DNA of 64,000 nt from an uncultured Anaerolineaceae bacterium (GCA_964549865.1 CAZJYB010000002.1:512-64511); one strand, 5' to 3'. Positions 9,251 to 62,580 are shown, numbered from the stretch's first letter. The notes: generated from the letters alone by a model not told the origin. Numbers and translations: made by a program.

Positions 9251-9296
9251 TTGACAGTAAGCTTTTTATGTGCGAGAATTCAGAAAATGAATTCTC
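9251..9296 (+). promoter_or_regulatory. Type-A promoter/operator module: TTGACAG-N13-TGCGAGAATTCAGAAAATGAATTCTC
   Basis: It has a -35 TTGACA, a 17-nt spacer and a -10 GAGAAT. A perfect 8-bp inverted repeat GAGAATTC-N7-GAATTCTC overlaps the -10, the predicted TSS and ATG 9287. The same arrangement recurs at 12394-12439. Confidence 0.6.
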
Positions 9297-11300: not shown

Positions 11301-12397
11301 TGATCCCTCTTGTAGATCTTACTGCACAGTATCATTCCATCAAGAAGGAAATTGACGAGGCTGTGCTGTCCACATTGGAGTCGGGTCATTTTATTTTAGG
11401 ACCTGCGGTCAGTAAATTCGAGGAGAGCATCGCCTCGTATCTTGGTGTGGACTTGGCGATTGGCTTGGCATCCGGAACAGATGCCCTGGTCCTGGCATTG
11501 CGTGCACTGGATATCGGGCCGGGCGACGAGGTGATCATTCCTGCTTATACATTTTTTGCGACGGTAGGCACCGTGATGTCTGTTGGCGCAAAACCAGTGT
11601 TTGTGGATATTGACCCGCAAAGTTATCAGATCGATGTAGGGCAGATAAGGGCCGGTATCACTGTCAATACGAAGGCGATCATCCCAGTGCATCTATATGG
11701 TCATCCTTCTGAAATGAATCCCATCATGGCGATTGCGCGTGAGCACGGTTTGAAAGTGATCGAGGATAATGCACAGGGGTTTGGTGCCGAATATGATGGA
11801 AGGAAGACCGGTTCTTTTGGTGATATCGGGTGTCTTAGCTTCTTCCCCACGAAAAATCTTGGAGCTTATGGGGACGCCGGCATGGTGGTGACGAACGACC
11901 CCGCGCTTGCAGAACGGATGCGTATGTTACGCACGCATGGCTGGAAGAAAAAATATTATTCAGAGGAAGTTGGCTATAACAGCCGGCTGGATGCCCTGCA
12001 GGCCGCGATCTTGCAGGTGAAACTGCCTTACCTGGATTCGTGGAATGAAAAGCGCCGCGAGCTTGCGGATCTTTACACCGACTGTTTTTCATCTTTGGGC
12101 GTCGGTGTGCCTGTTGAGCGTACATGGGCGAAGCATGTTTATCATTTATATATCATTCGGTCTTCACGGCGCGACGAGTTACAGGCATTTTTGAAGCAGA
12201 AGAATATTGCTTCTGAAGTCTACTATCCTTTACCACCGCATCTATCTGTGCCTTGCAGGAAACTTGGTTACAAAGAGGGCGATTTTCCGCATGCTGAACG
12301 GGCTGCACGAGAGACCCTAGCTCTTCCGCTCTACCCTGAGTTGATAGAGCAGCAGCAGGAAGAGGTGATTGCCTCATTAACCAAGTTTGTGGGTTGA
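11297..12397 (+). CDS. DegT/DnrJ/EryC1 PLP-dependent sugar aminotransferase, WbpE/WlbC-like
   Basis: Motifs seen are [19 protein letters not shown] and [15 protein letters not shown] (the PLP lysine region). Its start overlaps the upstream stop. Confidence 0.85.
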
Positions 12398-12439
12398 CAG
12401 GAAATTGCTTCCATGCGAGAATTCAGAAAATGAATTCTC
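12394..12439 (+). promoter_or_regulatory. Type-A promoter/operator module, copy 2, upstream of wzm/wzt set 1
   Basis: It has the same TTGACAG, the same 13-nt spacing and the same 26-nt TGCGAGAATTCAGAAAATGAATTCTC as 9251-9296. Confidence 0.6.
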
Positions 12440-12451
12440 GATCTTGTTGTT

Positions 12452-13324
12452 GTGAAGGATGTTATGGAAATACAATCGTCTGATCAAGAAAATTGGTCTC
12501 TCGTAATTCGCCCGCAACGCGCCTGGTGGGATTTACGTGTGGGTGAATTGTGGCGGTATCGGGACCTGATCTGGTTATTTGTATGGCGTGATTTTGTTGC
12601 TTATTACAAACAGACCATTCTCGGCCCGCTGTGGTACATCATCCAACCAGTGCTGACGACTGTTGTATTTACGATTATCTTCGGAAATATTGCCAAACTT
12701 TCCACCGATGGGTTGCCTCCCTTTTTGTTTTATATGGCCGGAAATATCGTTTGGAGTTATTTTAGCACCTGCCTAGTTACCACGTCTAATACATTCACAG
12801 CTAATGCTGGGATATTTGGAAAGGTATATTTTCCGCGCTTGAGTATGCCTGTTTCTGTGGTGATCTCCAATTTGATCTCGTTTTTCATCCGTCTTGCTAT
12901 ATTTTTGCTCTTCATAGGTTACTTTATATTGACAGGTGCAGACTTTCATCTCACTTGGTGGATTTTAAGCCTGCCACTTCTGGTGGTTATCATGGCCATG
13001 ATGGGGCTCGGGTTCGGTATGATCATTTCCTCGCTTACAACCAAATATCGTGATCTCCAGCAATTGGTGAGCTTCGGTGTTCAACTCCTGATGTATGCCA
13101 CGCCGGTGATTTATCCGCTTTCAAGTATCGAAGGTAGCTGGCGCTGGCTGATTCTGGCAAACCCGATGACTCCCATTGTGGAGGTCTTTCGCTTGGCCTT
13201 TTTTGGGGTAAGCGCGATCGACCCTGTTTCTTTGCTTTATAGCGCCATTTTTACAGTGGTTGTTTTTTTGGCAGGTGCATTGATCTTCAATCACGTTGAA
13301 ACCACCTTTATGGATACGGTTTAA
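12452..13324 (+). CDS. wzm: ABC-2 type polysaccharide exporter permease
   Basis: It has YKQTILGPLWYIIQP and six TM helices, and sits adjacent to the ATPase. The start (GTG 12452 or ATG 12464) is uncertain. Confidence 0.88.
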   Translation: MKDVMEIQSSDQENWSLVIRPQRAWWDLRVGELWRYRDLIWLFVWRDFVAYYKQTILGPLWYIIQPVLTTVVFTIIFGNIAKLSTDGLPPFLFYMAGNIVWSYFSTCLVTTSNTFTANAGIFGKVYFPRLSMPVSVVISNLISFFIRLAIFLLFIGYFILTGADFHLTWWILSLPLLVVIMAMMGLGFGMIISSLTTKYRDLQQLVSFGVQLLMYATPVIYPLSSIEGSWRWLILANPMTPIVEVFRLAFFGVSAIDPVSLLYSAIFTVVVFLAGALIFNHVETTFMDTV

Positions 13325-52831: not shown

Positions 52832-54265
52832 TCAAACGAACTTGATCCTGCGCGCGGCAAAAGCGACCATTCTCAACAATAAAATGCCGTGTTTCCAGCG
52901 CGAGATGTTGGTTGTGCCATAGGTGCGTTCGCGATAGCGGATGGGCAGGTCGACGATTTTTCGGTTCAGTTTGGCTGCCCCAAAGATCAGGTCGAAATCA
53001 CCAAAGGGATCGAAGTCCCCGAAGTAGGATCGGTTCGCGGCGATCTTTTCATAATCGTCACGCCACAATACTTTTGTCCCACACAATGTATCCTTGATGG
53101 GCTGACCCAGCATCCACGAGAAGGCCATGCTGAAGAGTTTGTTACCTATGAAGTTCAAGGTACGCATGGCTTCCTTTTCCATTGGGTAGACAAGACGCAC
53201 CCCGTTGATAAATTCGCCCTTGCCGGATGCGATGGCATCGTAGAAACGCGGCAGGTCTTCGGGGGGAACGGTCAGATCCGCATCGAGGATCATCAGGATG
53301 TCGCCGCTGGCTTTTTCGAAGCCGAGGCGGATGGCGTCAGCCTTGCCAATGCCGGTTTGTCGAAAGAGCAGGCTTGGGGTTTGGGAATGAAGCGGAATTT
53401 CCTGCTCGATGGTTTCGTAGGTGTTGTCGCCTGAATGTCCCTCGACAAAGATCAACTCTGTTCTTGTCCCCATCTTTGGAAGGCGCTCAAAAATGGATTT
53501 AATATTGCCGGCCTCGTTACGCGCCGCCACAACGACGGAGACGCTGGGTTCCTGGGTGCGTTGCGGCGCGGGACGGGCGACCACAAAGTTTGAGAGAGCG
53601 AACTCGCGGAAGGGCCAGAGTTTGACGAGATAGCGATTGGCGACCCCCCCGAGGGGCAGGGGCCATAAAACCTCCTCGGCGGAACGGATGCTTTCAAAGC
53701 CTGCAAGACGCAGCATATTATTAATATCTTCGGGGGTAAGCCAGTTTTGATAAAGCAGGGGCGCGGCAAGATCTAAACTTTGCGCGATGGTAAGCGGCAA
53801 CTGCCAGAGATGGCTGTAAAAATTAAGAATTAATCGCGTGTGTGAATTACAGAATTTTTTGACCTGCTCGAGCGCACGTTGCACATCCCACAGTTCGTTG
53901 ATCGTGTCTGAAAAAATGATGACATCGAACGTGCCTTCCAGGCTGGAAAGATCGTGAACATCTGCCTGGTGATATTCGATATCGGGATGGCGCTTTTTGG
54001 CCCGTTCTATCATCATCGTGGAGAAGTCGACTCCAACGCCATGAGAAGGTCGCAGTTGCGAAATCAGATCACCCATGCCGCAACCGATCTCCAGGATACG
54101 CTGATTGGGATTGACAAGGAAACGATAGACCTCGATCAACCTGCGGTGATACCACCTTCCCATGCCGCGCCAGTTGTCACGTTTTTGAGCGACAAGATCC
54201 CAATGTGCCATGCGGGTTTCCTGATATGCCCTGCCTGCTTCGTCAAAAGATGGATTTACATTCAT
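52832..54265 (-). CDS. Bifunctional class I SAM methyltransferase / GT2 glycosyltransferase fusion
   Basis: The N-terminal methyltransferase has ILEIGCGMGDL and FDVIIFSDTINEL. The C-terminal GT2 has VSVVVAARNE, VEGHSGDNT, ILDADL and CGTKVLWR. Confidence 0.82.
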   Translation of the reverse strand: MNVNPSFDEAGRAYQETRMAHWDLVAQKRDNWRGMGRWYHRRLIEVYRFLVNPNQRILEIGCGMGDLISQLRPSHGVGVDFSTMMIERAKKRHPDIEYHQADVHDLSSLEGTFDVIIFSDTINELWDVQRALEQVKKFCNSHTRLILNFYSHLWQLPLTIAQSLDLAAPLLYQNWLTPEDINNMLRLAGFESIRSAEEVLWPLPLGGVANRYLVKLWPFREFALSNFVVARPAPQRTQEPSVSVVVAARNEAGNIKSIFERLPKMGTRTELIFVEGHSGDNTYETIEQEIPLHSQTPSLLFRQTGIGKADAIRLGFEKASGDILMILDADLTVPPEDLPRFYDAIASGKGEFINGVRLVYPMEKEAMRTLNFIGNKLFSMAFSWMLGQPIKDTLCGTKVLWRDDYEKIAANRSYFGDFDPFGDFDLIFGAAKLNRKIVDLPIRYRERTYGTTNISRWKHGILLLRMVAFAARRIKFV

Positions 54266-54269
54266 AGCG

Positions 54270-54284
54270 CCATGATTTTACCTG
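54270..54284 (-). promoter_or_regulatory. Type-C motif TCAGGTAAAATCATG, copy 2
   Basis: The 15-mer is identical to 46698-46712. The -10-like TAAAAT ends 8 nt upstream of ATG 54265, which would give a near-leaderless transcript. Confidence 0.4.
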
Positions 54285-54324
54285 ATAAATTTGCGTAGCC
54301 CGTCCCATCCGCAGAATAGTGGAC

Positions 54325-54373
54325 TTGACCTTGCCTCGAATGGGGTTATAATTCAGTGACTGAATTTTGGATT
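54325..54373 (+). promoter_or_regulatory. Type-B promoter/operator: TTGACC-N16-TATAATTCAGTGACTGAATTTTGGATT
   Basis: It has near-consensus -35 and -10 hexamers. The palindrome AATTCAG-N3-CTGAATT starts inside the -10. The module is duplicated at 4015-4041. Confidence 0.6.
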
Positions 54374-54382
54374 GTAAAGTAT

Positions 54383-54853
54383 ATGGAATCAACCAACGAC
54401 GAGATCCGCGAACTCTCCCTGCTTGAACAGATCGAGAACGACCCGAATGTCAACCAGTCCACGCTTGCCACCCAACTGGGTGTTGCGGTTGGAACGGTCA
54501 ATTGGCATTTAAAACGTCTCATTGCCAAAGGCGCTGTAAAGGTTTCGCGCGCTGAGCGCAAGAAATTGCGTTACATCATCACGCCCGAGGGACTTGCCCT
54601 GCGTGCCCGTCTGGCAATCGATTACGTGGAACGTTCATTCTCTGTATATCGACGAACACGCCAGCGCGTGAAGGATCATGTTTCTTCGATTCGCCGCGCA
54701 GGATACGATCGTGTGCGCATCGTTGGCTCCGGCGATGTGGCTGATATTTGCAAACTGACATGTCTTGAACAGGGTATTTCCGTGGTGAACGATAAATCTG
54801 CGCCCGCATTAATTTTGGATGGCTACAAAGTACGGCTGGAGGGTTTGGAATGA
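54383..54853 (+). CDS. Winged-helix (MarR-like) transcriptional regulator, paralog 2
   Basis: NQSTLATQLGVAVGTVNWHLKRLIAKGAVKVSRAERKKLRYIITPEG is colinear with the regulator at 9287. I preferred ATG 54383 to GTG 54356, which lies inside the operator. Confidence 0.7.
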   Translation: MESTNDEIRELSLLEQIENDPNVNQSTLATQLGVAVGTVNWHLKRLIAKGAVKVSRAERKKLRYIITPEGLALRARLAIDYVERSFSVYRRTRQRVKDHVSSIRRAGYDRVRIVGSGDVADICKLTCLEQGISVVNDKSAPALILDGYKVRLEGLE

Positions 54854-55860
54854 CCGATCGCCATGTGCTCATTACGGGAGGCGCAGGATATATCGGTTCC
54901 ATCCTGACCTCGGAACTGCTGCGCGCCAATTACAGGGTTACCGTCCTGGACTCTTTACTGTTCGGCGGCGAAGCGATCGTTCCGTTTTTGCATCACCCCA
55001 ACTTTCACTTTGTGAAAGCGGATGTGACTGAAAATCGCGCAGTGCGTGACTCGATCAAGCGCGATTGGCAGAAACCTGACTCAGTTGTTCATCTTGCCGC
55101 GATTGTGGGTTTTCCTGCATGTCAGGCGGTGGGCAGGCAGGTGTCGTGGAAATACAATGTCGACGCCACGAAAATGGTTTTCGAACAAGCATTGGATCTG
55201 GGCATCGCGCGATTCGTTTTTGCATCCACTTATAGCAACTATGGGCTGTCGCCGGATGGCAAACCTGTGACGGAAGAATCTGCATTAAATCCGCAATCCC
55301 TGTATGCCGAGACCAAGATCGCGGCGGAGGAGTTCTTGAGCTCACAAAAGGACTCGGTCTGCGCGCCGTTGCTGTTCCGTTTTGCGACCCTGTATGGAAT
55401 TTCCCCGCGTACCCGTTTTGACCTGATCGTCAATCAATTTGTGTTGGAGGCATTCACCAAACGCGAATTGATCATTTACCAGCGCGGCTATTCACGTTCA
55501 TTCGTACATATTCGTGACGTGGTACGCGGCGTGATGATGGGTCTCGAAGCCGAACGCGAAAAGGTGTGCGGGCAGATTTTCAATCTGGGAACTGAGAACG
55601 GAAATTATTCGAAGGACGATATCGTGCAATTGGTGCTTAAACGCATGCCGGAGACAGTCGTTGAATACAAGGATCTGACTTTCGGGGGCGATATGCGCGA
55701 TATTACGGTTTCGTTCGAGAAAATCAAGCGTGTACTTGGTTTTGATGCGACCCTGACCGTGGATGACGGCGTGCGCGAGGTTTTACACGCCTTAAAGACG
55801 GGTTTGATAAGAAACCCAACGGATGACAGATACAGGAATGCACAATTCATCGTGCAATAG
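54850..55860 (+). CDS. NAD-dependent NDP-sugar epimerase/dehydratase (SDR)
   Basis: Motifs seen are VLITGGAGYIGS and YAETKIAAEE. Confidence 0.7.
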   Translation: MTDRHVLITGGAGYIGSILTSELLRANYRVTVLDSLLFGGEAIVPFLHHPNFHFVKADVTENRAVRDSIKRDWQKPDSVVHLAAIVGFPACQAVGRQVSWKYNVDATKMVFEQALDLGIARFVFASTYSNYGLSPDGKPVTEESALNPQSLYAETKIAAEEFLSSQKDSVCAPLLFRFATLYGISPRTRFDLIVNQFVLEAFTKRELIIYQRGYSRSFVHIRDVVRGVMMGLEAEREKVCGQIFNLGTENGNYSKDDIVQLVLKRMPETVVEYKDLTFGGDMRDITVSFEKIKRVLGFDATLTVDDGVREVLHALKTGLIRNPTDDRYRNAQFIVQ

Positions 55861-55875
55861 GTTGCAAGTTACCGA

Positions 55876-55890
55876 GTTGAAGGTTGAAGG
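55876..55890 (+). repeat. Left arm of the inverted repeat bracketing four-helix-bundle gene 1
   Basis: GTTGAAGGTTGAA is the exact complement of 56343-56355. Confidence 0.6.
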
Positions 55891-55899
55891 AGTATATGA

Positions 55900-56313
55900 A
55901 TGACGACTGCAAAGCGGTTTGAGGAATTGGAAGTTTGGCAAAGAGCCAAAGATCTGACAAACCTGGTTTATAAATTTTCCACAGATGGGTCGTTTGCGCG
56001 TGATTTCGGTTTGCGCGACCAAATCAGACGCGCGTCTGTTTCGATTATGTCCAATATAGCCGAAGGATTTGAGAGTCAAACTCAGGCTGTGTTTATTAAG
56101 TACCTCGCGTATGCCAAAGGTTCTGCGGGTGAGTTGCGGGCTCAACTTTATATTGTCAGGGATCAAGGCTACATAACTGATGAAGAATTTGATCAAGCAT
56201 TTTCCGCAGCGGAAATTTGCAGCAAGCAATTATCACGTTTTATTCATTATTTGGAATCCCAACCCAACGCGCGGCGGGTCCGCGAAGAAGAAGTAGCGTA
56301 CAATGTCGAATAG
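55900..56313 (+). CDS. Four-helix-bundle protein (23S rRNA intervening-sequence protein / Avd-like family)
   Basis: Motifs seen are [48 protein letters not shown]. Confidence 0.8.
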
Positions 56314-57316
56314 CCAACCTTCCAACTTTCAACCTTCTGACTTTCAACCTTCAACCTTTTGGCAGAACAAACGTGTGATCGTTACGGGGGGAGGAGGTTT
56401 CCTCGGCTCCTTTGTTGTTGAAGAACTTAAGCAGCGCGGCGCGACCGATATTTTCATCCCGCGCAAAAAGGATTATGACCTGACCGATCACAACGCAATT
56501 GATCGTTTCTATAATGATGCGTTGAAAGGTGTCGAGCCCGGGCATACGATCGTGATTCATCTGGCCGCCAATGTGGGCGGCATCGGCGCCAACCGTGAAC
56601 ACCCCGCTGAATTTTTCTACGATAACCTGGTGATGGGCGTGGAATTGATGCACCAGGCCTGGAAGCGCGGTGTCGGCAAATTCGTTGCCACCGGAACGGT
56701 GTGTGCGTATCCCAAATTCACCCCGGTTCCGTTCAAGGAAGATGACCTGTGGATCGGCTATCCTGAAGAGACCAATGCTCCCTATGGCCTCGCCAAAAAA
56801 ATGATGCTGGTGCAGGCGCAGTCTTATCGCCAGCAATATGGATTCAATTCCATTTTCCTTTTGCCTGTAAATCTATATGGCCCTGGCGATAATTTCAATC
56901 TGCAAACCTCGCATGTGATCCCGGCCTTGATCCGCAAGGCGGTCGAAGCGGGTGAGCGCGGTGATCAGGAACTGCAAGTGTGGGGGGATGGCTCTCCAAC
57001 CCGCGAATTCCTGTATGTGGAAGATGCTGCAGATGGCATTGTCACTGCTGCTGAAAAATATGACGGCGATCAGCCTGTCAATCTTGGTTCCGGTTATGAG
57101 ATCTCGATCAAGGATTTGAGCGAAATCATTGTGAAAATGACCGGTTTTCAGGGAAAGCTTGCATGGCAGACCGATAAACCGAACGGCCAGCCACGCCGAG
57201 GGCTGGACGTCACCCGTGCAAAGGAATTATTCAATTGGCGTGCGCGAGTTACCTTTGAAGAAGGCATGCGTCGCACGATCGAATGGTTTAAAGCCAATCG
57301 TGAAAAAATTAAATAG
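56303..57316 (+). CDS. fcl: GDP-L-fucose synthase (GDP-4-keto-6-deoxymannose 3,5-epimerase/4-reductase)
   Basis: Motifs seen are [45 protein letters not shown] and [12 protein letters not shown]. The true start may lie downstream of the repeat-encoded first ~20 codons. Confidence 0.88.
56314..56356 (+). repeat. Right arm: reiterated CAACCTT/CAACTTT heptamers, also read as the fcl N-terminal codons
   Basis: The sequence is CCAACCTTCCAACTTTCAACCTTCTGACTTTCAACCTTCAACC, and 13 nt are complementary to the left arm. Confidence 0.6.
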
Positions 57317-57319
57317 CCT

Positions 57320-57373
57320 GGATCGCGGACTTCAGTCCGCAATTCATATATAGCGGACTGAAGTCCGCGATCC
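57320..57373. repeat. Perfect 21-bp inverted repeat with a 12-nt loop (GGATCGCGGACTTCAGTCCGC-N12-GCGGACTGAAGTCCGCGATCC)
   Basis: I read it directly from the sequence. Each arm holds a nested mini-palindrome (GCGGACT-TC-AGTCCGC). It ends 7 nt before the wzm2 ATG, and a second copy lies at 61681-61731. Confidence 0.85.
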
Positions 57374-57380
57374 GAGAAAA

Positions 57381-58226
57381 ATGACTGAAATTGTAAAACA
57401 CGAACCCACCACGGTTTACATCAAGCCATCCAAAGGTCTTGCAGCATTAAACCTGCATGACCTGTGGGTTTACCGTGAATTGATCTTCTTCATGGTCTGG
57501 CGTGATATAAAAGTCAAATATAAACAAACTCTTTTGGGCATGGCCTGGGCGGTTATTCAACCGTTGATGACCATGTTGGTGTTCACCTTCCTGTTTGATC
57601 GGGTTGCAAAACTACCGACGGAAGGGATCCCTTATCCTGTTTTTTCTTTTACTGCATTGTTGCCGTGGGGCCTGTTTGTCGTGGCGCTTAATCAGGGGAG
57701 TCGCTCGCTTGTGGCGCATAACAATATGGTGACCAAGATCTACTTCCCGCGCTTGATCCTGCCCATGTCATCGGTCTTTGCCGGGCTGGTTGATTTTGCG
57801 ATCGCCTTCGTCATTCTGGTTATTCTGATGTTTTACTATCAAGTCACCCCTGCATGGAATTTACTGTGGACTCTTCCGCTGTTTCTATTATTGGCAATTA
57901 TCACCGCGCTTGGCGTGGCGCTCTGGCTTTCAGCGATCAATGTACAATATCGCGACGTAAACCAGGCCCTCCCGTTTCTGACCCAGTTCTGGCTGTTTGC
58001 CACACCTGTTGCATATTCCGCCACTGTCATCTCTGAAAAATGGCAGGTTTTATATTTTCTGAATCCGATGGCCGGAGTGGTCAATGGATTTCGCTGGTCT
58101 TTGCTCGGCATTGGCAATGGACCGGATATTACACTCTGGGTTTCAACCGGTATTTCGATATTGATTTTCATCTCTGGCCTTTTCTACTTTCGCAGCATGG
58201 AAAAGACCTTTGCGGATACTATATAA
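57381..58226 (+). CDS. wzm: ABC-2 type polysaccharide exporter permease, set 2
   Basis: It has YKQTLLGMAWAVIQP and six TM helices, and is paralogous to 12452-13324. Confidence 0.88.
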   Translation: MTEIVKHEPTTVYIKPSKGLAALNLHDLWVYRELIFFMVWRDIKVKYKQTLLGMAWAVIQPLMTMLVFTFLFDRVAKLPTEGIPYPVFSFTALLPWGLFVVALNQGSRSLVAHNNMVTKIYFPRLILPMSSVFAGLVDFAIAFVILVILMFYYQVTPAWNLLWTLPLFLLLAIITALGVALWLSAINVQYRDVNQALPFLTQFWLFATPVAYSATVISEKWQVLYFLNPMAGVVNGFRWSLLGIGNGPDITLWVSTGISILIFISGLFYFRSMEKTFADTI

Positions 58227-58227
58227 A

Positions 58228-58263
58228 GTGTCAGGTTTCAGGTGCCATGTATCAGGTCATCTG
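58228..58263 (+). repeat. Left arm of the inverted repeat bracketing four-helix-bundle gene 2 (reiterated CAGGT units)
   Basis: GTGTCAGG and TTTCAGGTG pair with CCTGACAC (58662-58669) and CACCTGAAA (58646-58654). Confidence 0.6.
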
Positions 58264-58277
58264 AAAAGTAGATTATC

Positions 58278-58640
58278 ATGGCGATGATTCAACGATTTGA
58301 AGATATTCAAGCCTGGCAGGAAGCAAGGATATTAGTGAAAATGATTTATCAATTAACAAATAAAGATAAATTTTCGAAGGACTTTGGAATGAGAGATCAG
58401 ATTAGGCGTGCCTCCGTTTCTGTGATGAACAATGTTGCAGAAGGTTTTGATTGTGAATCTAAGGCTGAGTTTGCTCGTTTTCTTGGAATTGCAAGGCGTT
58501 CGGCTGTAGAAGTCCAATCCCTTCTATATGCGGCAATGGATGTAGGTTATGTTGATCAAACTGAATTTGACTTGCATTATGAACAAGCACGTAAGGCAAA
58601 AGCCCTTATCGGCGGCTTCAAACGTTCCCTCACCAAGTAA
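58278..58640 (+). CDS. Four-helix-bundle protein (23S rRNA intervening-sequence protein / Avd-like family), second copy
   Basis: Motifs seen are [30 protein letters not shown] and FLGIARRSAVEVQSLLY. Confidence 0.8.
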   Translation: MAMIQRFEDIQAWQEARILVKMIYQLTNKDKFSKDFGMRDQIRRASVSVMNNVAEGFDCESKAEFARFLGIARRSAVEVQSLLYAAMDVGYVDQTEFDLHYEQARKAKALIGGFKRSLTK

Positions 58641-58669
58641 CCTGACACCTGAAACGTGATACCTGACAC
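58641..58669 (+). repeat. Right arm of the inverted repeat bracketing four-helix-bundle gene 2
   Basis: CCTGACACCTGAAACGTGATACCTGACAC ends 6 nt before the wzt2 ATG. Confidence 0.6.
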
Positions 58670-58675
58670 ATACTT

Positions 58676-59965
58676 ATGACAACAGCGATTTCAGTAAAAA
58701 ACATTGGCAAACAATACAAGATTGGCGCGGCTGAGTCGAAATTCCGCTACAACATGCTCCGCGATGTGATCGTGGATACCGTTTCTGCACCAATTCGTCT
58801 GGCGAAAGCGATGGTGGGAAGGTCTGACCGCAGACAGAACCAGAACTACGTCTGGGCATTGAAGGATGTTTCCTTTGATCTGGAAGAAGGGAAGGTCCTT
58901 GGCATTGTTGGGCGTAATGGCGCGGGGAAAAGTACCCTGCTCAAGATCCTTTCTCGTGTTACCGAGCCAACGGTCGGCATGGTTTCTGTACGTGGGCGTG
59001 TCGGCTCGCTCCTCGAAGTAGGTACCGGCTTTCACCCCGAACTCACTGGCCGTGAAAATATTTATATGAACGGCGCGATCCTGGGCATGAAGCGTGCTGA
59101 GATCGATTCCAAATTTGATGAGATCGTTGACTTTTCTGAGGTTACTCAATTCATTGATACACCGGTCAAGCGCTATTCATCAGGCATGTATCTGCGCCTG
59201 GCTTTCGCGGTTGCCGCGCATCTCGAACCTGAGATCCTTGTAGTTGACGAAGTGCTTGCGGTGGGCGACGCGGAATTCCAGCGCAAGTGTCTTGGCAAAA
59301 TGGGGGACGTGGCGCAGCAGGGCCGCACGGTCTTGTTCGTCAGCCATAACATGTCCGCGATCCTGAGATTAACGCAAGAAGCCATCGTCTTGAACAAGGG
59401 TCAATTGCTGATGCGCGGCCCCACCCAGGAGGCTGTCGATTTTTATCTCTCATCGGGGCAGGCACAAGCCGGGGAGCGCGCCTGGGATGTTGATGAAATC
59501 CCGGCATCCAGTGCTCCATTCAGGCCGATCAGTTTGAGGGTCAAGGACAGAAGCGGAAAGGTCGTGGATACTGTCCGCTCCACGGAGCCACTCAACGTCG
59601 AATTTGAATATCAACTGGATGCACCCATTACCGGGCTGCGCATCGGTTTTTATCTCAGCACCATGCGCGGCGAATATGTGCTGACCTCATTTGATACCGA
59701 TGAGCCGCAGATGTTCGATCAATTTGATTCACGCAAATCCGGTCGTTATGTCAGTCGTTGCGTGATCCCGGCGGATATCTTCAACGAGGGACGGTATGGC
59801 CTGGGTGTGAACGCCAGTTCGTTTGGCGTGCGTCGTTATTTCATGGATGAGAATGCTTTGGCATTCAATGTGGATATTTCGGGCGCGCCAGGTACGCAAT
59901 GGCCCGAGCCGCGTGTGGGCCCGGTACGCCCGCGCCTTGAATGGAAGATCGAGAAACTGGATTAA
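58676..59965 (+). CDS. wzt: ABC polysaccharide exporter ATPase with a divergent C-terminal binding-type domain, set 2
   Basis: It has GRNGAGKST, YSSGM and ILVVDE. The N-terminal ~250 aa are close to 13329-14636, while the C-terminal domain is much more divergent. Confidence 0.88.
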   Translation: MTTAISVKNIGKQYKIGAAESKFRYNMLRDVIVDTVSAPIRLAKAMVGRSDRRQNQNYVWALKDVSFDLEEGKVLGIVGRNGAGKSTLLKILSRVTEPTVGMVSVRGRVGSLLEVGTGFHPELTGRENIYMNGAILGMKRAEIDSKFDEIVDFSEVTQFIDTPVKRYSSGMYLRLAFAVAAHLEPEILVVDEVLAVGDAEFQRKCLGKMGDVAQQGRTVLFVSHNMSAILRLTQEAIVLNKGQLLMRGPTQEAVDFYLSSGQAQAGERAWDVDEIPASSAPFRPISLRVKDRSGKVVDTVRSTEPLNVEFEYQLDAPITGLRIGFYLSTMRGEYVLTSFDTDEPQMFDQFDSRKSGRYVSRCVIPADIFNEGRYGLGVNASSFGVRRYFMDENALAFNVDISGAPGTQWPEPRVGPVRPRLEWKIEKLD

Positions 59966-59971
59966 AAAATT

Positions 59972-60035
59972 AACCGCGAAGAGCGCAAAGAATTCTAAAA
60001 GCTTTTCTTGGCGACCTTGGCGTGCTTTGCGGTTC
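59972..60035 (+). repeat. REP/MITE-like element, copy 2
   Basis: AACCGCGAAGAGCGCAAAGAATTC..CTTTTCTTGGCGACCTTGGCGTGCTTTGCGGTTC has complementary termini (AACCGCGAAG / CTTTGCGGTT) and matches 361-433 on the opposite strand. Confidence 0.6.
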
Positions 60036-60043
60036 AAAAAAAC

Positions 60044-61678
60044 ATGGCTACAAAATCAACTCTCAAAAATTTCCTGGGCGATCTGCCCTTTACTGCTGAA
60101 ATCGATTGGATGCTTCGGCAGAAGAACCACGCCCGCAAGGATCATTTCAATCTCGATCGTTTGGGTGGATCCCTGCCCGAGGCGCGCGCAGCGGTTGAAC
60201 CTTTTGCGCGCAATGCAAAACCAGGAAAAAATGTTTTGTTCTTTGCCACGCTGCATTACTGGATCGAGCAATCTGCTTATTTGGGTCTGGCCCTCGCCGG
60301 CCTTGGGCATAAAGTCACTTTGCTGACCTTGCCCTATGCCGAATGGCACAAGCAGAAGGATAATTTCACACAACGGCAACGCGTGCTTCACACACGGGAT
60401 GTACTTTCATCTTTATCGCCCTTGATCGAACACGCTTCCATGCTGGACCCTTCGACACGGCTTCGCCAGTCAGGACGGCGCCTCAAGCCTGCTTCCGTTC
60501 TCCCGGAGAAGATCCTGGCTGACATACAGGAGATCTCACTGTGGGACGCGCAATATACCCTGATGCGCGAAGAAGTGGATATGAACGATCCCGAAGAGCG
60601 CGCCTTATATGACCTGCGCGTTCAGCGAAACACATTTGCCGCTGGTGCCGCGCTTGAATGGATGCGATCGAAGAAGCCCGATGTCCTGCTGGTTCCCAAC
60701 GGGTTGATCCTCGAAATGGGCATTGTTTTTCGCGTGGCCCGTTATTTGGACATCCCCGCGGTGACGTATGAATTCAACGACCAGCGCGAGCAGATCTGGC
60801 TGGCGCAGAATTCGTCGATCATGCAGCAGGATACGGATTATATTGTTGAGGCGCGCTGTCATTTGCCGATGACCGATGAAATGTTCGAACGCGTGGCCGA
60901 TCTTGAAAATGCGCGTCGCGGTGCGCGTGTCTGGGGAAAGTCCAAGCGCTTATGGCAATATGTCTCTGCGCAGGGAGCCGATGAAACCCATAAGATGCTT
61001 GGTCTGGATGATCGCCCTGTTGTGATGCTTGCCGCGAACGTGCTGGGCGATAGTCTCACGCTGGGACGGGATATCTTCGCGGGGTCGATGACTGAATGGA
61101 TCACAAAAACTGTTCAGTTTTTTGCGAACAGGCCGGATGTCCAGATGGTGATCCGTGTACATCCCGGCGAGACGCTTGTACCGCAGGCGAAATCCATGGG
61201 GCAGGTGGTGCGTGAGGCGCTGCCGGTCCTGCCCGATCATATACACGTCATTGGCGCGGCGGACAAGGTCAATACATATGACCTGATCGAGATCGCCGAC
61301 CTGGGGCTGGCCTACACAACAACGGTCGGGCTTGAGACTGCAATGAACAGCCGTCCCGTGATCTCGTGTGGTGAGACACATTATCGCGGCCGCGGCTTCA
61401 CACTTGACCCGAATTCGTGGGACGAGTATTACGCCATACTCGAAAAGGTATTGAGCGATCTGCCCGCGCATCGTTTGAATGAAAAGCAGACCGAATTTGC
61501 ATGGAACTACGCCTATCGTTTCTTCTTTGAATATCCGTGTCCTTTCCCATGGAGGTTAATGAATTTCTGGGACGATCTGGAAACATGGCCATTGGAAAAG
61601 GTATTGAGCGAAGAAGGGCAGGCGCAATTTAAAGATACGTTTGATTTTCTGGTTGGAAAACCTTTTACGTGGAAATGA
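60044..61678 (+). CDS. Capsule_synth (KpsC/KpsS)-like GT-B protein with an HP motif; candidate ulosonic-acid transferase
   Basis: It has VVMLAANVLGDSLTL followed by MVIRVHPGE (HP motif) and AYTTTVGLETAMNSRPVI. This assignment is from motif memory only. Confidence 0.4.
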   Translation: MATKSTLKNFLGDLPFTAEIDWMLRQKNHARKDHFNLDRLGGSLPEARAAVEPFARNAKPGKNVLFFATLHYWIEQSAYLGLALAGLGHKVTLLTLPYAEWHKQKDNFTQRQRVLHTRDVLSSLSPLIEHASMLDPSTRLRQSGRRLKPASVLPEKILADIQEISLWDAQYTLMREEVDMNDPEERALYDLRVQRNTFAAGAALEWMRSKKPDVLLVPNGLILEMGIVFRVARYLDIPAVTYEFNDQREQIWLAQNSSIMQQDTDYIVEARCHLPMTDEMFERVADLENARRGARVWGKSKRLWQYVSAQGADETHKMLGLDDRPVVMLAANVLGDSLTLGRDIFAGSMTEWITKTVQFFANRPDVQMVIRVHPGETLVPQAKSMGQVVREALPVLPDHIHVIGAADKVNTYDLIEIADLGLAYTTTVGLETAMNSRPVISCGETHYRGRGFTLDPNSWDEYYAILEKVLSDLPAHRLNEKQTEFAWNYAYRFFFEYPCPFPWRLMNFWDDLETWPLEKVLSEEGQAQFKDTFDFLVGKPFTWK

Positions 61679-61680
61679 TC

Positions 61681-61731
61681 GGATCGCGGACTTCAGTCCG
61701 CTATAAAATTGCAGGCTGAAGTCCGCGATCC
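61681..61731. repeat. Second copy of the 21-bp-arm palindromic element (right arm carries a 3-nt deletion)
   Basis: GGATCGCGGACTTCAGTCCGC-N12-GGCTGAAGTCCGCGATCC has a left arm identical to 57320-57340. Confidence 0.8.
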
Positions 61732-61761
61732 GTCAGAAAATATGCATTCCGTTAGGAACAA

Positions 61762-62580
61762 ATGACAGATACAAAACAAAAAGTACGTGAGTTTTACGAT
61801 GAGATCGGCTGGCAGCAGGAAGATGATGGTCATTATCAGAATGCCCGTTATGAAGACCTGCGGCCCGTTTCGCGCGAATACATCCACAAAACGCGTTTGC
61901 GTGTGATGCATGGATTGATCCCGACCGGCAGATTTATATTGGATGCCGGTTCCGGGCCTGTGCAATACGAAGAATACAAAACCTATTCGCTGGGGTATCA
62001 GAAGCGCGTATGCCTTGATATTTCGATCCAGGCGCTACGAGAGGCACGCGAACGTATTGGCGATCATGGGTTGTTCGTAGTAGGTGACCTTGCCAACCTG
62101 CCATTCAAGGCAGAAGCTTTTGATGGCGCGGTTTCAATGCATGCAATCCATCACCTTGCGTTAGCCGAACATCCGCGAGCATATGGAGAGATCCATCGTG
62201 TGCTTGCAAACGGACGAACCGCGGCCATTGTCAATGGCTGGCATGAACCTCTTTTGAGCCGCATGGCAGAACCGTTGATCGGCCTGATGCGCAGGTTATC
62301 CGGCCGCTCCGAGAAAAAGAAAAAAGAATGGCTCAACGTCGAAGATCCGGCCGGGACATTTGTGCAAAAAATGACCCCCGAGTGGCTTAAGCGTGAGGTC
62401 GGTTCGAAGATGAGCATCGAGATCAAGCCGTGGCGCAGCATGAGCACGCGCATTTTGCGCTGGTTCGTGCGTCCGTTTGGTGGCAGGCTATTCTTGAAAT
62501 TTGTTTTCTGGCTTGAGGGGTTATTTCCAAAGTTCTTTGCAGAGAACGGCCAGTATCCGCTGATTGTGGTGAAGAAATAA
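61762..62580 (+). CDS. Class I SAM-dependent methyltransferase
   Basis: Motifs seen are ILDAGSGPVQ and FDGAVSMHAIHHL. Confidence 0.75.
   Translation: MTDTKQKVREFYDEIGWQQEDDGHYQNARYEDLRPVSREYIHKTRLRVMHGLIPTGRFILDAGSGPVQYEEYKTYSLGYQKRVCLDISIQALREARERIGDHGLFVVGDLANLPFKAEAFDGAVSMHAIHHLALAEHPRAYGEIHRVLANGRTAAIVNGWHEPLLSRMAEPLIGLMRRLSGRSEKKKKEWLNVEDPAGTFVQKMTPEWLKREVGSKMSIEIKPWRSMSTRILRWFVRPFGGRLFLKFVFWLEGLFPKFFAENGQYPLIVVKK

Follow-up and report, generated by a model that had tools for sequence, protein, structure and literature searches.

A stretch of 64,000 nt from an uncultured Anaerolineaceae bacterium (GCA_964549865.1 CAZJYB010000002.1:512-64511), referred to as a whole as the window, carries two sets of exporter genes, each with a wzm permease gene and a wzt ATPase gene. 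In set 1 the wzm1 stop codon (13322-13324) and the wzt1 ATG (13329) are 4 nt apart; in set 2 the wzm2 stop at 58226 and the wzt2 ATG at 58676 are separated by 449 nt (58227-58675), and the coordinates bear out the original prediction on both spacings. With a probability of about 0.62, the gap between wzm2 and wzt2 holds a selfish gene cassette of the intervening sequence (IVS) type, in which an inverted repeat composed of clade-specific heptamers in tandem encloses a gene of the PF05635 family in its loop, all within an operon that encodes mRNA. The point of insertion appears to lie precisely between the wzm2 stop and wzt2 start codons, a junction that in most relatives measures 0-2 nt or is an overlapping TAATG, as is usual for translationally coupled genes.

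The protein encoded in the gap (cassette 2; Table 1) matches the profile PF05635 ('23S rRNA-intervening sequence protein') with 109.6 bits against a cut-off of 33.8 (E 1e-31) and TIGR02436 ('four helix bundle protein') with a score of 101.9 against a cut-off of 24, which confirms the four-helix-bundle gene that had been proposed from the sequence. An exact-sequence look-up of the protein returned no match. The AlphaFold2 model, calculated for a monomer, has a pLDDT of 91.5 and four helices (residues 3-27, 38-57, 62-88 and 94-119); its best structural matches are 2GSC (XCC0516) and 2RLD (BT_0352), with TM scores of 0.80-0.87 and root-mean-square deviations of 1.4-2.8 Å, and 2GSC is also matched at the sequence level (E 7e-14). 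The Avd chains 4DWL and 8UB7 superimpose with TM scores of 0.76-0.84 at about 6% sequence identity. By analogy, the protein would belong to the S23p/Avd-like class of pentamer-forming four-helix bundles. Such a fold, together with the use of PF05635 for annotating Avd-like proteins, could mean that the gene is the Avd accessory of a diversity-generating retroelement (DGR). However, the 64 kb contain no open reading frame (ORF) that reaches 200 aa and has a [YF]xDD motif, the long direct repeats are paralogous genes only, with no pair of template and variable repeats (TR/VR) among them, the gene tables of relatives, which extend over 4 kb to each side, list no reverse transcriptase, and the sequence identity to Avd is very low. 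With neither a reverse transcriptase nor a TR/VR pair found in the window, the DGR interpretation was rejected as highly improbable.

The arms of cassette 2 are 30 nt each and 80% complementary, and each consists of four units with a period of 7 nt; the right arm can be read as CCTGACA CCTGAAA CGTGATA CCTGACA. The repeat consensus in the window is GTNTCAG on the left and CTGANAC on the right, and the arrays are able to pair in more than one register. The 17-bp interrupted stem of the original prediction, composed of GTGTCAGG+TTTCAGGTG at 58228-58244 and of CACCTGAAA at 58646-58654 plus CCTGACAC at 58662-58669, is present, but the repeat is larger than had been proposed, and the 8+9 bp represent one register with a 7-nt bulge. 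As predicted, 6 nt lie between the end of the right arm and the wzt2 ATG; the arm begins at the last base of the stop codon of the PF05635 gene. The duplex between the arms has a free energy (ΔG) of -33.5 kcal/mol, compared with -13.4 ± 3.3 for shuffled sequences (z -6.1; 0 of 1000 shuffles as good), and the terminal stem is found in both the minimum free energy and the centroid folds of the whole 476-nt region.

Table 1. Features of the second exporter operon and its two PF05635 cassettes (window coordinates)
Feature	Position	Strand	Description or basis
Cassette 2 left arm	58228..58257	+	GTGTCAG GTTTCAG GTGCCAT GTATCAG (+GT), four heptamers; begins 1 nt past wzm2 stop
Cassette 2 5' leader	58258..58277	+	GTAG at 58268-58271
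Cassette 2 PF05635/TIGR02436 four-helix-bundle gene, 120 aa	58278..58640	+	Profiles, structure comparison, purifying selection
Cassette 2 right arm	58640..58669	+	ACCTGAC ACCTGAA ACGTGAT ACCTGAC AC, inverted heptamer array
Cassette 1 left arm	55859..55891	+	GTTGCAA GTTACCGA GTTGAAG GTTGAAG G
Cassette 1 PF05635 gene, 137 aa	55900..56313	+	PF05635 profile, E 7e-34
Cassette 1 right arm	56313..56360	+	CCAACCTT CCAACTTT CAACCTT CTGACTTT CAACCTT CAACC
wzm2, ABC-2 permease	57381..58226	+	PF01061 ABC2_membrane profile match
wzt2, ABC ATPase with Wzt_C domain	58676..59965	+	ABC_tran and Wzt_C profile matches
Promoter-like site TTGACC-16-TATAAT (11/12), upstream of MarR-type gene	54325..54352	+	Promoter scan

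A comparison with orthologous operons argues for an insertion rather than for a regular component of the exporter. The closest proteins stem from metagenome-assembled genomes of Anaerolineales (Chloroflexota), and the most similar Wzt in the locus search, from Candidatus Villigracilis proximus, is 93% identical over the best segment. Loci L001-L022 of the survey share the gene order MarR-epimerase-epimerase-wzm-[PF05635]-wzt-capsule synthesis-methyltransferase, carry arms of the cassette 2 type, and encode PF05635 proteins that are 88-89% identical to that of cassette 2. In a census of 80 species-representative wzt orthologs, 62 of which were assessable, wzm and wzt overlap or lie at most 20 nt apart in 32 of the 62 operons, the uninterrupted state with which comparison had been suggested; several of these tight junctions (TAATG, or TAA directly followed by ATG) belong to operons with a Wzt 84-93% identical to that of the window. 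Short inserts of 21-130 nt occupy the junction in 22 operons, other long inserts in five, and a PF05635 gene in three (L044, L047 and L099), all of them distant and each with other heptamer arms. The L023 operon, with a Wzt 90% identical to the window's, has no PF05635 gene at the junction. In a crude neighbour-joining tree of Wzt the loci that bear cassette 2 are interspersed with empty ones, and the comparison of filled with empty sites reveals no target-site duplication, the cassette sitting between TAA and ATG.

The same relatives differ in whether they carry a related cassette further upstream in the operon (cassette 1, described below): L001-L022 have cassette 2 only, L025 and L030 have cassette 1 only, many have neither, and the window has both. 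All four combinations together with the interspersed Wzt tree thus speak against a routine exporter partner, the outcome that would have made the arrangement unremarkable, and indicate that elements of one kind were inserted twice, independently, as originally predicted. The alternative explanation is that the PF05635 protein is an accessory of the Wzm2/Wzt2 exporter or of the polysaccharide pathway, with the repeats serving ordinary intercistronic regulation. In its favour, one Anaerolineales clade conserves an intact gene at this position, and PF05635 genes recur near polysaccharide or ABC-transporter genes (cassette 1; L044, L047, L099, L136 and L169); however, the gene is missing from 59 of the 62 orthologous operons, including the closely related L023, close homologues with the same arms occur in unrelated contexts (methylmalonyl-CoA mutase/phosphofructokinase, a carB half-gene and a defence island, among others), and exporter set 1 of the window lacks a PF05635 gene. 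An accessory role is very improbable on these grounds, and the gene product appears not to be an exporter subunit.

The junction between wzm and wzt is home to further inserts. Several of the short inserts, those of L024, L027, L037, L041 and L043, are heptamer hairpins without an ORF, in which tandem units and their inverted copies enclose a tiny loop. Each has a unit of its own, and that of L027 reads GTCAAAA GTTGAAG GTCGAAA GTC tctt GAC CTTCGAC TTTTGAC; these hairpins parallel the ORF-less intervening sequences of rRNA. In L065 (2151-3000, Dehalococcoidales) the two genes are split by a small antitoxin and a PIN-domain protein, and in L085 (740-2990, Pirellulaceae) by HicA/HicB-like and other small genes. 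No clear heptamer arms were found at these toxin-antitoxin-like inserts, and the L065 case implies that the repeat system is not a general carrier of cassettes. Selfish genes seem to have landed at this junction repeatedly. In addition, another palindromic family (cattgcgagg...cgaagcaatc...gattgcttcg...cctcgcaatg) fills the gap between the epimerase genes or that between wzm and wzt in some relatives (L001 1899-2013, L029 2897-3000 and L032 2934-3000). The PF05635 cassette of L099 (2367-3000) has more than 150 nt of GCTGAAA-type heptamers in its left flank, and its right flank begins with direct copies that are followed by inverted ones (CCTTCAC CTTTCAC ...).

Cassette 1 lies between two NAD-epimerase genes and has arms of the GTTGAAG and CAACCTT types, the duplex of which has a ΔG of -27.6 (7 of 1000 shuffles as good). 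The two PF05635 genes are the only ones in the 64 kb, and cassette 2 contains no second ORF. With different heptamers and proteins that are 39% identical, the two cassettes differ in the way that had been described from the sequence, i.e. in unlike arms and moderately similar proteins. Cassette 1 is absent in L001-L022 and present in L030 and, in frameshifted form, in L025. At its site, the comparison of filled with empty loci shows that the cassette replaced 24 nt comprising the ribosome-binding site (RBS) and the first four codons of the downstream epimerase, the N-terminus of which reads MAENFWQNKK in relatives without the cassette. The epimerase now starts at an ATG at 56303, inside the 3' end of the PF05635 ORF, which implies that the right arm of cassette 1 is translated; its repeats form an N-terminal extension that leads into the conserved FWQNK (56303-56380). 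The same fusion of arm and epimerase occurs in L025 (about 1108-1160) and L030 (about 1089-1150).

Arms and protein are inherited together. Pairs of cassettes share repeated arm hexamers in 0.8% of cases below 55% protein identity, in 12% at 55-65%, in 60% at 65-75%, in 89% at 75-85% and in 96% above 85%. Relatives from the metagenome series that are at least about 77% identical to the cassette 2 protein are found in the wzm-wzt context, and those that are 64-76% identical retain GTGTCAN / NTGACAC arms in other contexts, some in the gap between methylmalonyl-CoA mutase and phosphofructokinase genes and some upstream of a carB half-gene. Likewise, GGACTGA arms occur in Chloroflexota, Deinococcota and Desulfobacterota, and GAGTTGC arms in Gammaproteobacteria and Desulfobacterota, in unrelated contexts in either case. 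Overall, arms and protein co-diverge and move jointly between unrelated loci.

Both components bear signs of selection at the present site. Among the orthologs of cassette 2, 11% of residues differ compared with 53% of four-fold degenerate sites, a contrast that implies a strongly constrained protein under strong purifying selection. On either side, the arms of this family contain about three units that strictly match GT[G>a,t][T>c]CA[G>a], compared with 0.33 expected by chance; the orthologs retain 3-4 GTNYCA units per arm, and the spacing of the units is exactly 7 nt in 100 of 124 cases. Among 24 distinct orthologous cassettes, the distance from the wzm stop codon to the first unit is 0-2 nt in 22, and that from the last unit to the wzt ATG is 2-8 nt in as many. 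Such conserved placement at stop and start codons, in the face of synonymous sites near saturation, points to a function of the arms where the element sits. The arrays that the original prediction saw as a stem are kept, abutting the stop and start codons, in 24-27 orthologous cassettes. In L185, L192, L220, L249, L262 and L025 the PF05635 ORF is truncated or frameshifted and the arms are retained; these are either decaying copies or assembly errors. In L213, L218, L219, L225, L227, L246, L248, L255 and L261, cassettes of the cassette 2 type outside the wzm-wzt context, an extra hairpin followed by a T-run (e.g. GTGCCATGT...ACATGGCAC TTTTTT) is located between the left arm and the RBS, 30-60 nt before the PF05635 ATG, and looks like an intrinsic terminator within the cassette.

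The architecture extends well beyond this lineage. A survey covered 79 PF05635 genes from more than 15 phyla, 45-64% identical to that of cassette 2, plus nine from this lineage (88 in total); neighbouring genes in it were called from ORF length alone. Across the 79 loci, the upstream and downstream 100-nt flanks of a gene pair much better with each other than with those of mismatched loci (median ΔG -53.4 vs -39.1, p 2e-13), and in 39% the ΔG falls below the 5th percentile of the control. The clearest arrays consist of (GGTTTGT)n with (ACAAACC)n, others of GTTCCGA, GTGAACA, GTCCGAA, GGACTGA or GTGATGA. For the 88 genes, the autocorrelation at lag 7 is 0.39 in both flanks, against a background of about 0.25 and a value of 0.28 within the ORF; lag 7 is the best in 43-44 of them, lag 8 in 20-24, and one or the other in 64-67. 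A 5-mer present at least three times upstream, with its reverse complement at least three times downstream, is found at 31% of loci, compared with 2.4% when the loci are mismatched and 2.7% around a control gene, and the G-rich version of the repeat lies upstream in 71 of 79 cassettes. An ORF framed by a heptamer inverted repeat is thus a family-wide layout of PF05635 genes in more than 15 phyla. Twelve loci within L103-L182 have clean period-7 runs in both arms, and all 12 consensus heptamers contain AGT or GGT; in this small sample the purine-G-T trinucleotide is shared with the units of cassettes 1 and 2 and does not occur in the Coxiella unit GACAGAT.

Heptamer arrays in themselves occur far more widely than PF05635 genes do. 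Among the 80 matches listed for (GACAGAT)n arrays, taken as an unbiased sample, a PF05635 gene adjoins four, and 24 have an inverted partner, either at 30-140 nt, as hairpins, or at about 390-475 nt; all four listed arrays with a partner at the longer distance carry PF05635, and in 20 of the 24 pairs among these matches the G-rich version reads into the element at both ends. This abundance of arrays, most of them without an adjoining PF05635 gene, and the imperfection of the arms are what one would expect if the inverted repeat had arisen by chance or by neutral slippage of simple sequence next to a small hypothetical gene and had no function. Against such an origin stand the failure of all 1000 shuffles to reach the pairing of cassette 2, a family-wide architecture that appears at only 2-3% in controls, and the conservation of motif and placement near synonymous saturation; a functionless repeat is accordingly a very remote prospect.

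Cassette 2 is probably read as part of the operon RNA. The promoter-like site at 54325 is the sole strong one in a scan for promoters and terminators, which detected no such site adjoining either cassette and no terminator between the genes of the operon; this combination suggests transcription of the cassette from the operon promoter, and the site is the likely start of the operon that bears both cassettes. An Rfam scan of 54000-62500 identified no rRNA or other Rfam family, the sub-threshold miRNA-like matches being to a palindrome unrelated to the cassettes. An RNA-level role is favoured by this mode of transcription in conjunction with the precedent of the Coxiella IVS and with RNA binding by Avd, which are described below. 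In the mechanism that we envisage, the promoterless cassette would be transcribed within the operon RNA, and its two arrays would pair as a long-range stem, as in the homologous 23S rRNA IVS, whose stem RNase III cleaves. The stem would bring the wzm2 stop codon near the wzt2 start codon, so that the split pair could still be expressed in a coupled way, and it may permit excision of the cassette mRNA. A ribosome that terminates on wzm2 would unwind the left arm, and the right arm would thereby be released immediately before the wzt2 ATG. The likeliest role of the protein would be to bind its own repeat arrays or the stem, as Avd binds a stem-loop of DGR RNA. Taken jointly, transcription in the operon RNA, a stem between the arms, coupling of wzm2 and wzt2 and possible excision form a tentative proposal that we hold to be somewhat less probable than its converse.

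Several observations weigh against this interpretation. The fold of the whole cassette 2 region is of ordinary stability (z -1.16, compared with -1.19 for cassette 1), neither value being significant since the ORF dominates the fold, which is why the arms were also assessed alone. The stem would be a poor RNase III substrate, with 9 contiguous bp at its base and then mismatches about every 7 nt. Across 27 orthologous cassettes, the arms of a cassette pair no better with each other than with swapped arms (-38.0 vs -38.3 kcal/mol, permutation p 0.64); position 3 of the heptamer is not complementary beyond chance (0.32 vs 0.36), positions 4 and 7 are weakly so, and in 80 cassettes there is no excess of G·U on the sense RNA (121 G·U-compatible vs 111 A·C, p 0.55). 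About 38% of the surveyed cassettes have no co-oriented downstream gene, and coupling therefore cannot be the general role. Finally, a GGAG-type Shine-Dalgarno sequence stands at the leader position in 59 of 67 related cassettes (e.g. AAGGAGAATATC); in the window the leader reads AAGTAGATTATC (58266-58277), with GTAG in place of the motif, and this copy, its ORF intact, may be poorly translated.

In the light of these tests, the arms are best described as two arrays of a conserved motif and not as a co-evolving helix. The suggestion that a selected stem masks or exposes the RBS of wzt2, or presents an RNase III site, finds no support in the tests made here; its geometry fits, but pairing, position 3 and wobble all gave negative outcomes, and the right arm contains no Shine-Dalgarno-like sequence to be masked. 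Since the arms behave as motif arrays, a role at the DNA level or in protein recognition stays a serious rival. The arms would then be inverted arrays of a clade-specific 7-bp motif at the ends of a mobile element, comparable to the subterminal repeats of a transposon. The pentameric PF05635 protein of the element would recognise them, either by itself or in concert with an enzyme of the host or of a retroelement, and thereby serve to mobilise, maintain or autoregulate the element; the RNA stem would be a by-product. The same free positions, 3 and 7, recur in all units on both arms, as a recognition motif predicts and a helix does not, and neither compensatory covariation nor wobble asymmetry is seen; the co-divergence of arms and protein, their joint movement across loci and phyla, the purifying selection on the protein, and a symmetric polarity of the arrays like that of terminal inverted repeats (both in the surveyed cassettes and in the paired GACAGAT arrays among the matches listed) fit this view too. 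On the other hand, filled and empty sites give no target-site duplication, the cassette lacks a catalytic gene, PF05635 proteins have no known DNA-binding or recombinase activity, and the event shown for the rRNA homologues is RNA cleavage. Moreover, cassettes resident long enough to reach 53% four-fold divergence keep their arms, which suggests a function in place and not only during transposition. We regard a mainly DNA-level role as unlikely, and an IVS-type cassette that acts through the operon RNA remains the preferred reading. An assignment to DNA transposons or miniature inverted-repeat transposable elements is not borne out: there is no target-site duplication, the cassette has no second ORF that could encode a transposase, and the 64 kb contain no near-identical copies.

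A broader and more speculative possibility, which we think rather doubtful, is that PF05635 cassettes, ORF-less hairpins and rRNA IVSs belong to a single widespread class of mobile elements, the only gene of which encodes a pentameric Avd-like protein that recognises its own arrays and aids the spread or retention of the element. The ends of such an element would be inverted arrays of a clade-specific heptamer, and the protein might work with a reverse transcriptase, as Avd does. Recognition of its own arrays by the protein would explain the co-divergence of protein and repeats, and the occurrence of the elements at stop/start junctions of operons and in exposed rRNA helices would follow if insertion is tolerated only there. 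The literature that was found deals with rRNA IVSs and DGRs only; within the literature searched, the coverage of which is incomplete, no account of a PF05635 gene flanked by inverted heptamer arrays outside rRNA was encountered.

If the layout holds in ordinary operons of most bacterial phyla, thousands of independent insertions, empty sites, ORF-less derivatives and clade-specific pairs of repeat and protein become available for comparison, and the long-standing problem of the S23p proteins and of the origin of IVSs becomes tractable; what these proteins do and where the elements come from have both been described as unknown (PMC4990558). It also follows for genome annotation that genes labelled 'Four helix bundle protein' in polysaccharide, ABC-transporter and other operons would be insertions and not members of the respective pathways, and that repeats of the element can enter neighbouring coding regions, as has happened in the epimerase gene that follows cassette 1. 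The wzm2-wzt2 locus itself would provide a natural case of a translationally coupled gene pair that was split by 449 nt and has persisted over a long evolutionary time.

Two other repeats were noted in the window. A near-perfect palindrome of about 54 nt (GGATCGCGGACTTCAGTCCGC ... GCGGACTGAAGTCCGCGATCC) is present in two copies (57320-57373 and 61680-61732) that occupy gaps of the same operon, between epimerase and wzm2 and between the capsule-synthesis gene and the methyltransferase; it is a small repeated hairpin element distinct from the cassettes. A 46-nt direct repeat, 83% identical between 9251-9296 and 12394-12439, begins with TTGACAG and contains the hairpin GAGAATTC-AGAAAAT-GAATTCTC; one copy precedes the ORF at 9251 and the other wzm1, and the repeat may be a common promoter or leader element of exporter locus 1.

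Among known repeats, the Correia elements of Neisseria, REP/BIME and ERIC are small intergenic palindromes that are co-transcribed and processed, with hairpins that RNase III can cut. Each family has one conserved sequence per genome in many near-identical copies, and Correia elements generate a TA target duplication. The cassettes resemble them as co-transcribed inverted-repeat elements between operon genes whose presence varies between strains, and the ORF-less junction hairpins look similar; however, each element described here has its own heptamer, its arms are tandem arrays, many copies include a protein gene, and no target duplication is seen. The short tandemly repeated repetitive (STRR) heptanucleotides of heterocystous cyanobacteria are lineage-specific repeat families that, to our knowledge, have not been described as inverted pairs bracketing a gene. 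Compared by description, they share with the cassettes the tandem heptanucleotide arrays in intergenic DNA, and arrays of this sort flank a Nostoc PF05635 gene (L136) on either side.

Avd shares the four-helix-bundle fold with the cassette 2 protein. In pentameric form it binds a specific RNA stem-loop (bioRxiv 10.1101/2023.10.23.563531), and its pentameric barrel has been called 'similar to S23 ribosomal proteins' in the literature. Apart from the low sequence identity, cassette 2 differs from the DGR context of Avd in that the window contains neither a reverse transcriptase nor a template or variable repeat, and flanking heptamer arrays are not a described feature of DGRs.

The closest parallel is provided by the rRNA IVSs of Leptospira, Coxiella burnetii, Xanthomonas and Brucella; IVSs with S23p ORFs have been known since the early 1990s. 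Cassette 2 differs from them in that its host RNA is a polycistronic mRNA and not 23S rRNA, and in its position at a stop/start junction rather than at the tip of helix 25 or 45. In Coxiella, a 28-bp terminal stem encloses the S23p ORF, GACAGAT heptamers are repeated in tandem in variable number, and RNase III cuts within the stem (PMC4990558); the stem of cassette 2 is much less perfect, and RNase III cleavage, an experimental finding for the rRNA element, would be a prediction for cassette 2. Most copies of cassette 2 have their own RBS and evolve under strong purifying selection, in contrast to the Coxiella ORF, which is decaying and probably untranslated. Both systems nevertheless share terminal inverted repeats that form a stem with a sense-oriented ORF of the PF05635 family in its loop, tandem heptamers in variable copy number in the 5' part, the lack of a promoter and hence a ride on the host transcript, the coexistence of versions with and without the ORF at the same sites, and a patchy distribution among relatives.

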